The notes under the pieces: generated by a model | What the model was told of the DNA's origin: nothing | Database searches by the model: none | The model's input: only the letters and a program-made list of their open reading frames with translations | Program-made: the position numbers and the translations under genes | Assembly: GCF_003334335.1 (NCBI RefSeq) | Contig: NZ_QOWQ01000043.1 | Length of the DNA: 36,574 bases | Direction: 5' to 3' (one strand) | From: Escherichia coli | GTDB taxonomy: Bacteria > Pseudomonadota > Gammaproteobacteria > Enterobacterales > Enterobacteriaceae | Shown: piece by piece, positions 34,654 through 36,256 of the stretch | Numbering within the stretch: position 1 is the stretch's first letter | Layout: each line of letters begins with the position of its first letter

Positions 34654-35472
34654 ATGGAAACCTATGCTGTTTTTGGTAATCCGATAGCCCACAGCAAATC
34701 GCCATTCATTCATCAGCAATTTGCTCAGCAACTGAATATTGAACATCCCTATGGGCGCGTGTTGGCACCCATCAATGATTTCATCAACACACTGAACGCT
34801 TTCTTTAGTGCTGGTGGTAAAGGTGCGAATGTGACGGTGCCTTTTAAAGAAGAGGCTTTTGCCAGAGCGGATGAGCTTACTGAACGGGCAGCGTTGGCTG
34901 GTGCTGTTAATACCCTCATGCGGTTAGAAGATGGACGCCTGCTGGGTGACAATACCGATGGTGTAGGCTTGTTAAGCGATCTGGAACGTCTGTCTTTTAT
35001 CCGCCCTGGTTTACGTATTCTGCTTATCGGCGCTGGTGGAGCATCTCGCGGCGTACTACTGCCACTCCTTTCCCTGGACTGTGCGGTGACAATAACTAAT
35101 CGGACGGTATCCCGCGCGGAAGAGTTGGCTAAATTGTTTGCGCACACTGGCAGTATTCAGGCGTTGAGTATGGACGAACTGGAAGGTCATGAGTTTGATC
35201 TCATTATTAATGCAACATCCAGTGGCATCAGTGGTGATATTCCGGCGATCCCGTCATCGCTCATTCATCCAGGCATTTATTGCTATGACATGTTCTATCA
35301 GAAAGGAAAAACTCCTTTTCTGGCATGGTGTGAGCAGCGAGGCTCAAAGCGTAATGCTGATGGTTTAGGAATGCTGGTGGCACAGGCGGCTCATGCCTTT
35401 CTTCTCTGGCACGGTGTTCTGCCTGACGTAGAACCAGTTATAAAGCAATTGCAGGAGGAATTGTCCGCGTGA
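34654..35472 (+). CDS. aroE: shikimate dehydrogenase
   Basis: Start at ATG giving [35 protein letters not shown] ... (272 aa), recognised. The ORF-track start at 34627 is an upstream GTG inside tsaC. Confidence 0.95.
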
Positions 35473-35726
35473 ATCAGGCCATCCAGTTTCCGGACAGGGA
35501 AGAGTGGGACGAGAATAAAAAATGTGTATGTTTTCCCGCTCTCGTGAATGGTATGCAACTGACATGCGCGATCTCTGGCGAGAGTCTGGCGTATCGCTTT
35601 ACTGGAGATACGCCAGAACAGTGGTTAGCGAGTTTTCGTCAGCATCGCTGGGACCTGGAAGAAGAAGCGGAAAACTTAATTCAGGAACAAAGTGAAGATG
35701 ATCAAGGCTGGGTCTGGTTACCCTGA
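35469..35726 (+). CDS. yrdB: small conserved protein of unknown function (DUF1488, YrdB)
   Basis: 85 aa, acidic. ATGA-type overlap with the aroE stop. 3' end overlaps the convergent yrdA by 25 nt. Confidence 0.8.
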
Positions 35727-36256
35727 TCCAGATATTCGTCCTTCCATTTCACGTAATTATTCGCGGAATAGCGTAACCCAGCCTTCTCTTCATCACTTAA
35801 CGGGCGGATCTGTTTGACGGGGCTACCGAGATACAGATATCCGCTCTCCAGCCGTTTATTTTGTGGGACCAGACTACCCGCACCAATCATCACATCATCT
35901 TCTACTATTGCGCCATCAAGTAAAATTGAGCCCATCCCAACCAAAACTCGATTGCCAATGGTGCAGCCGTGGAGCATCACCTTGTGACCAACAGTGACAT
36001 CTTCGCCAATGGTTAATGGGTTGCCATCTGGGTTGTACGAGGATTTATGAGTGACATGCAACATACTGCCATCCTGGATATTGGTGCGTGCTCCGATCTG
36101 TACATAATGTACATCTCCACGAATCACAACGAGCGGCCAGATCCCCACATCATCAGCCAGACGAACGTCACCAATCACGACACTGCTATCGTCGATCATT
36201 ACGCGCTGACCGATTTGTGGAAAAAGATCGCGGTATGGGCGTAAAACATCAGACAT
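35702..36256 (-). CDS. yrdA: hexapeptide-repeat (gamma-carbonic-anhydrase-like) protein YrdA
   Basis: Start at the internal Met MSDVLRPYRDLFPQIGQRVMIDDSSVVIGDV ... (184 aa). Left-handed beta-helix hexapeptide repeats. The ORF track extends 72 codons upstream into the rRNA promoter region, which is implausible. Confidence 0.9.
   Translation of the reverse strand: MSDVLRPYRDLFPQIGQRVMIDDSSVVIGDVRLADDVGIWPLVVIRGDVHYVQIGARTNIQDGSMLHVTHKSSYNPDGNPLTIGEDVTVGHKVMLHGCTIGNRVLVGMGSILLDGAIVEDDVMIGAGSLVPQNKRLESGYLYLGSPVKQIRPLSDEEKAGLRYSANNYVKWKDEYLDQGNQTQP

Follow-up and report, generated by a model that had tools for sequence, protein, structure and literature searches.

The 3′ coding ends of yrdB and yrdA, two convergent genes of Escherichia coli, share 25 nt, and this overlap is a conserved dual-coding segment, probably frozen by the two proteins, where Rho would end each transcript inside the partner gene and the antisense overlap of the transcripts would be an ordinary consequence. 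On the best explanation of the evidence presented below, the overlap is not a dedicated regulatory device. Unless MG1655 or locus coordinates are named, all positions refer to the window, which is the whole stretch of DNA of 36,574 nt that was analysed.

Geometry of the overlap and identity of the two genes

The yrdB coding sequence occupies 35469–35726 on the plus strand, running from GTG at 35469 to TGA at 35724–35726, and encodes a DUF1488 protein of 85 amino acids, as given by the list of open reading frames (ORFs), RefSeq, Pfam and the orthologues. The yrdA coding sequence occupies 35702–36256 on the minus strand, running from ATG at 36256 to TGA at 35704–35702, and encodes a gamma carbonic anhydrase-like left-handed beta-helix protein of 184 amino acids, as given by the ORF list, RefSeq, PDB entry 3TIO and NCBIfam. 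According to the ORF list and the codon table, the shared bases are 35702–35726, which are coding on both strands: they comprise the third base of codon 78 to codon 85 and the stop of yrdB, and the third base of codon 177 to codon 184 and the stop of yrdA. Each TGA stop is the reverse complement of T and CA in the opposite frame. The same geometry is found in the RefSeq annotation of an identical E. coli chromosome (locus L001), where yrdB lies at 3170–3427 on the plus strand and yrdA at 3403–3957 on the minus strand. The two genes lie on opposite strands and share bases at their 3′ coding ends, which makes them a convergent overlapping gene pair, and the 25-nt overlap that had been noticed in the first-pass annotation is borne out by the ORF list, the codon table and RefSeq.

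There is no room for a terminator between the two stops, so that a transcript extending to either stop codon is antisense to the partner gene. The first-pass annotation was correct on this geometric point. From the codon table, loss of a stop would lengthen YrdA by only 7 residues and YrdB by only 10.

In RefSeq, yrdB is the last member of the gene string dprA-smg-yrdD-tsaC-aroE-yrdB. The start codon of yrdB lies over the stop codon of aroE as GTGA at 35469–35472 on the plus strand (ORF list, RefSeq), an arrangement typical of translational coupling. On the other side, the 16S rRNA gene starts 474 nt past the yrdA start (RefSeq, L001), and this position agrees with the earlier description of yrdA as divergent from the rRNA promoters.

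The identities proposed for the two proteins, a DUF1488 protein and a hexapeptide-repeat beta-helix protein, are supported by family and structure searches. YrdB matches Pfam DUF1488 with E = 1.7e-33 over residues 5–84 and model positions 1–82 of 82, and it matches the solved structure 2GPI at 5.9e-10, while NCBIfam holds no model for YrdB. YrdA is the protein of PDB entries 3TIO and 3TIS (2.5e-121), of which the crystal structure spans residues 2–184. Its score against the NCBIfam gamma carbonic anhydrase model is 164.5 bits, which is under the equivalog cut-off of 250. By these matches, YrdA is assigned as a member of the gamma carbonic anhydrase-like hexapeptide-repeat family, and the enzyme activity of the equivalog is not implied by the score. 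The AlphaFold model of YrdA has a mean pLDDT of 60.7, which is too poor to use, and gives only a hint of a helix at residues 155–180 and of a loose end at 181–184.

Conservation and dual-frame constraint

The overlap is not peculiar to one strain. A region of 1.1 kb around the overlap was found with at least 80% coverage in 5422 of 5426 complete E. coli genomes. A megablast search with 61 nt matched 3712 of the 5426 genomes, where the word-size limit makes the remainder uninformative. For other Enterobacteriaceae, an alignment of YrdB orthologues was made and one genome was taken per species, and 80 of the 212 loci found were fetched, covering Escherichia, Citrobacter, Salmonella, Klebsiella, Raoultella, Enterobacter, Kosakonia, Kluyvera, Siccibacter, Franconibacter, Trabulsiella and other genera. 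In all 80 loci, yrdA is convergent to yrdB, and 76 of the 80 species share an overlap length of exactly 25 nt, which answers in the affirmative the question of conservation in this family that the first-pass annotation had raised. The overlap is 40 nt in Siccibacter turicensis and 19 nt in Kosakonia sp. S29 and Phytobacter diazotrophicus, where the yrdA stop comes two codons earlier; in Kluyvera genomosp. 3, yrdA is frameshifted, yet its 3′ end still yields the 25-nt geometry. At the other end of yrdB, ATGA or GTGA joins the aroE stop and the yrdB start in 78 of 79 species loci, and the orthologues keep the length of 85 amino acids together with the start codon coupled to the aroE stop (78 species).

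The codons within the overlap point to constraint from both frames. Read on the opposite strand, the third base of yrdB codon 78 together with the CA of codon 79 forms the yrdA stop. The third positions were counted over 78 species; because these are related, the counts do not represent independent events. Eleven amino acids occur at codon 78, yet its third base is T in 75 of the 78 species, so that the yrdA stop is preserved. The adjacent Asp77 serves as a control, with GAC in 41 species and GAT in 34. Where codon 78 encodes Ala, the codon is GCT in 11 of 11 cases, compared with 20 of 78 at Ala67. The replacements at codon 78 that keep T would be hard to explain without selection in the opposite frame. 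A corresponding pattern is seen at the end of yrdB, where the stop is TGA in 78 of 78 species; TAA or TAG at this position would put a stop at yrdA codon 178 and so truncate YrdA. Codon 85 of yrdB ends in a pyrimidine (C or T) in 77 of 78 species, so that Gln178 of YrdA is preserved. Taken with the Pfam and PDB matches, the third positions indicate that both ORFs are real genes under purifying selection, the overlap included.

The two proteins contribute unequally to the shared sequence. The C-terminal QGWVWL of YrdB is part of the Pfam domain and strongly conserved, and in YrdA the invariant residues end with Y175 and L176, beyond which the tail differs between families. Since the end of YrdB is conserved and the tail of YrdA is variable, YrdB dictates most of the shared sequence. 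YrdA reads the opposite strand as a short tail of kept length, which consists of its last seven codons. The GATC sites at 35700 and 35725 were also considered as a methylation feature and rejected; they are a by-product of codons that by chance read GAT-C, and many species lack them.

Deeper relatives were sought by searching cluster representatives with a YrdB profile and then taking the contigs that encode the matches. The same aroE-yrdB/yrdA junction was found with overlaps of 46 nt in Pantoea stewartii, 13 nt in Edaphovirga cremea, 28 nt in Edwardsiella tarda and 4 nt (TTAA) in Vibrio fortis, where a 16S rRNA gene follows yrdA as in E. coli. In Rouxiella aceris, the overlap is 25 nt with a different palindromic sequence, and both proteins end in DK. 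The yrdA of Edaphovirga ends in DK and its stop opposite the YLS of yrdB; in Enterobacteriaceae, yrdA continues to QTQP and its stop, and W replaces Y in yrdB. Judged from these junctions, the end-to-end contact is old and predates the split from Vibrio, and its length has apparently been altered by shifts of the stop codons. The overlap length varies among distant taxa in a way that speaks against a fixed RNA element there. As a point against the main reading, the zero spacing from Vibrio to E. coli outlasts what we would expect under neutrality alone.

Transcript ends and Rho-dependent termination

A scan for a G+C-rich stem followed by a U run gave no intrinsic-terminator-like site in the region of 35400–36500, and an Rfam E-value search of 33000–36574 returned only a sub-threshold match in the rrn leader and nothing at the overlap. 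Published transcript ends of MG1655 were placed on the window by means of two printed 61-mers, by which the MG1655 coordinate is 3465492 minus the window position. Term-seq of cells in LB at OD 0.4 gave a 3′ end with 1005 reads at MG1655 3429912 (+), described as 'antisense yrdB', which corresponds to 35580 on the minus strand (Adams et al. 2021, Supplementary file 1, PMC7815308). The 3′-end mapping that the first-pass annotation had suggested can thus be read from published data, with an end on the yrdA strand located inside yrdB.

The distance from the yrdA stop to the end at 35580 is 122 nt, and an 11-bp hairpin finishes 5 nt before that end. We infer from its strand and position that the end belongs to the yrdA mRNA, which would give yrdA a 3′ UTR at 35580–35701 on the minus strand, antisense to yrdB codons 38–78, with the Term-seq end as its low end. 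With an end at this position, the RNA covers 147 nt of the yrdB coding sequence, and the overlap of the transcripts far exceeds the 25 nt shared by the coding ends. The hairpin, which was identified from the inverted repeat, the fold and the Term-seq sequence, consists of a perfect 11-bp stem and an 11-nt loop at 35585–35617 on the minus strand, in yrdB codons 39–50. It likely protects the mapped 3′ end. It is followed by CUCUCGCC and has no U-tract, and so does not take the form of an intrinsic terminator.

The hairpin at 35585–35617 was also considered as a conserved RNA element. Over 78 species with 200 synonymous recodings each, z averaged about −0.86 on each strand and fell below −2 in only 14 to 16 of the 78 species, and the values for E. 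coli were −1.4 on the minus strand and −2.3 on the plus strand. The hairpin was rejected as a generally conserved element because the mean z is weak and the minus strand is not favoured. A second hairpin, at 35802–35845 with TTTATTTTG downstream, was considered as a terminator for yrdB and also rejected, since 11 nt separate its T-run from the stem and the published 3′ ends include none at this site.

Regions of Rho-dependent termination are reported on both strands from a bicyclomycin experiment, in which 800-nt windows were used (PMC7815308, Supplementary file 2); the positions given here are those of the peaks. On the yrdA strand, the peak is at 35320 on the minus strand, antisense to aroE (MG1655 3430172 (+)), with a score of 5.0 and p = 2e-11. 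On the aroE-yrdB strand, the peak is at 35576 on the plus strand, described as 'internal yrdB' (MG1655 3429916 (−)), with a score of 2.48 and p = 1.8e-7. The plus-strand termination behind the score of 2.48 may lie downstream, antisense to yrdA, and this score could also stem from an antisense RNA that begins within yrdA instead of from yrdB read-through. Within yrdA, the Term-seq data (PMC7815308) show no stable 3′ end of the aroE-yrdB RNA, and the TERMITe supplementary table gave no match.

The untranslated RNA beyond each stop is C-rich and G-poor. The 80 nt after the yrdB stop (35727–35806, plus strand) have a C fraction of 0.30 and a G fraction of 0.16, and the 80 nt after the yrdA stop (35622–35701, minus strand) have corresponding values of 0.30 and 0.15. 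A C/G ratio of about 2 is what would be expected for RNA antisense to coding sequence, and it suits the loading of Rho, as far as base composition can tell.

Overlapping transcripts of these opposite-strand neighbours, which are what places a pair among the excludons, are found in published data, namely in Term-seq and in the ExcludonFinder screen. In the latter, yrdA-yrdB is among the 165 convergent excludons of MG1655 on the basis of RNA-seq coverage in at least half of 58 transcriptomes, and validation with p19 double-stranded RNA was not feasible for convergent pairs (PMC12288877). That the pair passes such a screen is in keeping with a regulatory role and counts against the main reading. 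A further antisense RNA begins inside yrdA, and mutation of its promoter left yrdA::lacZ unchanged (Dornenburg et al. 2010, PMC2912661). The −10 hexamer of this internal promoter, CATAAT, lies at 36103–36108 on the plus strand. The yrdA::lacZ result is only indirectly relevant to the overlap, because the internal antisense RNA differs from yrdB read-through. The read counts of both yrdA and yrdB are low in the data of Adams et al. 2021 (PMC7815308), which suggests that polymerase collisions and duplex formation are rare.

Alternative readings and relation to known systems

If one of the ORFs were not real, or ended elsewhere, the overlap would be an artefact of annotation or sequencing. The small size of YrdB, its unknown function and the lack of an NCBIfam model might suggest this. 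However, annotators have no choice in where a stop codon lies, YrdB has its DUF1488 match of 1.7e-33 and a solved structure and YrdA has a crystal structure, the 85 residues and the aroE-coupled start of YrdB are kept across 78 species, and the region is near-identical in thousands of genomes. The termini are those of the ORFs, with both stop codons conserved and under selection, so the doubt that the true ends might differ from them falls away. On this comparative evidence, the artefact reading has practically no chance of being correct: the two stops and the two proteins are conserved, which refutes it. A bidirectional terminator is also very improbable. It would be formed by the near-palindrome at the stops (GATCAAGG...CCCTGATC, 35700–35728), where converging polymerases would collide at a stem-loop. 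The fold on the minus strand does give a 9-bp stem with two G-U pairs exactly over both stops, and bidirectional collision terminators from the Liu laboratory (Ju et al. 2019, in the account of Wang et al. 2022, bioRxiv 10.1101/2022.10.23.513370) are described in the latter as common between convergent E. coli genes. However, the stem is not where the yrdA-strand 3′ end maps, which is 122 nt beyond the yrdA stop, and a Rho score on each strand (5.0 and 2.48) does not agree with a class described as Rho-independent. The 5-bp core of TCAGG and CCTGA is forced by coding, as a stop by Gly on the one strand and Ser/Pro by a stop on the other, and the mechanism is described as working best for highly expressed pairs, whereas the counts of yrdA and yrdB are low.

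A functional convergent excludon, in which yrdA and aroE-yrdB would repress each other by polymerase collision or by RNase III cutting of the duplex, is more probable than either of these readings and is still unlikely. The listing of the pair among the convergent excludons of MG1655 (PMC12288877), the RNA of the yrdA strand that covers at least 147 nt of yrdB, the tail-to-tail contact conserved to Vibrio and the generally higher synteny of excludon pairs relative to other neighbouring pairs are in its favour. However, the listing reflects coverage, and the p19 validation is inapplicable to convergent pairs; the low read counts of both genes would make collision and duplex formation infrequent; Rho limits read-through on both strands; neither the overlap length nor the 3′-UTR hairpin is conserved; and the removal of a different antisense RNA of yrdA left yrdA::lacZ unchanged. 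The antisense regulation for which the first-pass annotation had advised a look is not supported at yrdB/yrdA, where the excludon listing is a matter of RNA-seq coverage. A broader and still more speculative idea, which we consider rather improbable, is that the junction beside the rrn operon has been selected from Vibrio to E. coli, either as an excludon that balances aroE-yrdB against YrdA, perhaps with rrn activity, or alternatively because YrdB and YrdA act together. If true, such joint action would be the first functional lead for the DUF1488 family.

The reading of a dual-coding overlap frozen by both proteins, with Rho ending each transcript inside the partner, would work as follows. 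The conserved end of YrdB (QGWVWL) largely fixes the opposite strand, which yrdA reads as a variable tail past Y175 and L176, and selection keeps the yrdA stop in place and bars those yrdB stops that would truncate YrdA. As no terminator fits between the stops, each transcript must end inside the partner gene. Once the ribosomes leave at a stop, the untranslated C-rich RNA would be exposed and Rho would terminate transcription within a few hundred nt, inside the partner. The 3′ end on the yrdA strand would then be trimmed back to the hairpin in yrdB, which would mark the stable end. Overlapping sense and antisense RNA is thus made, as at most convergent operons of E. coli. The effect of the overlap on expression is expected to be small, judging from the low read counts and from general considerations.

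The overlap is already present in the standard annotation, and the overlapping transcripts are already catalogued. The addition of the present analysis is comparative: the 25-nt overlap is fixed across Enterobacteriaceae, and the two frames constrain each other's synonymous sites. The pair offers a compact and clean case for testing the regulatory cost or benefit of a conserved convergent overlap, and there is a weak hint of a link between the DUF1488 and the YrdA-type proteins. Beyond this, the overlap matters little other than for bookkeeping, as such arrangements are common in E. coli.

The first-pass annotation had called convergent coding overlap uncommon, and this part of it is not supported, as such overlaps are not especially rare. 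In E. coli, 75 of 663 overlapping adjacent gene pairs are convergent (Huvet and Stumpf 2014, PMC4161906), and 276 of 370 convergent operons (75%) have complementary 3′ ends, which overlap by 286 nt on average (Conway et al. 2014, PMC4161252). Convergent coding overlap with overlapping transcripts is a minority but familiar arrangement.

Compared with collision terminators (bioRxiv 10.1101/2022.10.23.513370), yrdB/yrdA is alike in being convergent and in having at the boundary a sequence that could form a stem-loop; it differs in its 3′ end off the stem, its Rho dependence and its low read counts. Compared with excludons (PMC12288877), it is alike in having no intergenic spacer and in carrying the termination signals of each gene inside the partner; the class is defined by mutually exclusive expression, through interference or RNase III, and yrdB/yrdA is listed in it for its overlapping transcripts. 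The resemblance to Rho-dependent termination with trimming to a stem-loop (PMC7815308) is found in the bicyclomycin-sensitive regions beyond each stop on both strands, in the C-rich and G-poor RNA, and in the 3′ end that lies 5 nt after a perfect hairpin without a U-tract, where the step from termination around 35320 to a trimmed end at 35580 is our reading of the published positions. The pair is closest to the known convergent overlapping pairs, with which it shares a short 3′ coding overlap on opposite strands and conservation across species. Such overlaps are thought to arise by loss or shift of a stop codon (Huvet and Stumpf 2014, PMC4161906; Pallejà et al. 2009, PMC2716372), and the differences in length between families at yrdB/yrdA fit shifts of the stop codons. 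The 25 nt of the overlap exceed the 4 nt found in Vibrio. There is no difference in kind from these pairs, among which yrdB/yrdA is unusually fixed in length (76 of 80 species).

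Gene order and the aroE-yrdB junction

The start of yrdB (35469–35726, plus strand) is embedded in the end of the preceding gene, as its GTG start codon shares bases with the TGA stop codon of aroE in the GTGA at window 35469–35472. An ATGA or GTGA was found at the aroE/yrdB junction in 78 of 79 species loci, and this conserved arrangement suggests that yrdB is translationally coupled to aroE and that the coupling has been retained. On the other side of the gene pair, most Enterobacteriaceae contigs end some 1 kb beyond yrdB, a break that an rRNA operon would be expected to cause. 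In Vibrio fortis (L093), a 16S rRNA gene lies beyond yrdA on the opposite strand (3815–5267), as in E. coli. The order aroE-yrdB, yrdA, rrn appears to have been retained from Vibrio through to E. coli.

Transcripts within and beyond yrdA

An antisense RNA was mapped within yrdA (35702–36256, minus strand) by Dornenburg et al. 2010 (PMC2912661). The hexamer CATAAT at window 36103–36108 (plus strand), which matches the −10 hexamer of that RNA, is the only plus-strand copy within yrdA, and the RNA is directed toward the start codon of yrdA and the promoters of the rrn operon. In the same study, expression of yrdA::lacZ was unaltered by mutation of the internal antisense promoter.

Further along the plus strand, the Term-seq tables of Adams et al. 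2021 (PMC7815308) contain a very abundant "orphan" 3′ end (85008 reads; window 36458–36518, with the end at about 36508). This end falls in the loop formed by the hairpin CCTGAAATTCAGG, directly upstream of a promoter-like TTGACT-16-TAATAT site and before the start of the 16S gene. Read on the minus strand, this hairpin is followed by a T-run and has a terminator-like score (36516–36504). In the Rfam search, the match to the Yersinia sRNA Ysr197 over window 36362–36574 was sub-threshold, at 50.8 bits versus a gathering score of 167.

Disrupted copies of the two genes

Natural insertions disrupt each gene: yrdB is split by IS1 in E. coli L6-21, and the 5′ part of yrdA is removed by an IS66-family element in E. 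coli 1380. Both genes are therefore dispensable, at least in those strains. In addition, yrdA is apparently frameshifted in Kluyvera genomosp. 3 (L060), where its N- and C-terminal parts lie in different frames, and in a Vibrio-like metagenome contig (L094), where a non-homologous tail gives a called overlap of 57 nt; these two copies could be pseudogenes or assembly errors.

Sequence features at the overlap

Two arms of about 22 nt, at 35692–35713 and 35777–35797 and about 63 nt apart, form an imperfect inverted repeat. The former arm codes for SEDDQGWV of YrdB and spans the yrdA stop codon, and the latter, read on the opposite strand, codes for SDEEKAGL of YrdA. When folded, the plus strand of 35680–35860 has a z-score of −2.97 relative to shuffles. 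Two GATC (Dam) sites, at 35700–35703 and 35725–35728, lie 25 nt apart, one at each end of the overlap. Each arises where an Asp codon meets a Gln codon in one of the frames, and the sites are absent from many species; they are therefore probably a by-product of coding.

In Rouxiella aceris, the 25-nt overlap (L087, 2736–2760) is a near-perfect palindrome, CTATTTATC-N7-GATAAATAG, where the same bases are read on opposite strands and both YrdB and YrdA end in YLSxxDK*. E. coli resembles Rouxiella aceris in having a common motif near both protein ends, which in E. coli is DQG, seven codons upstream of the stop codon in both YrdB and YrdA.
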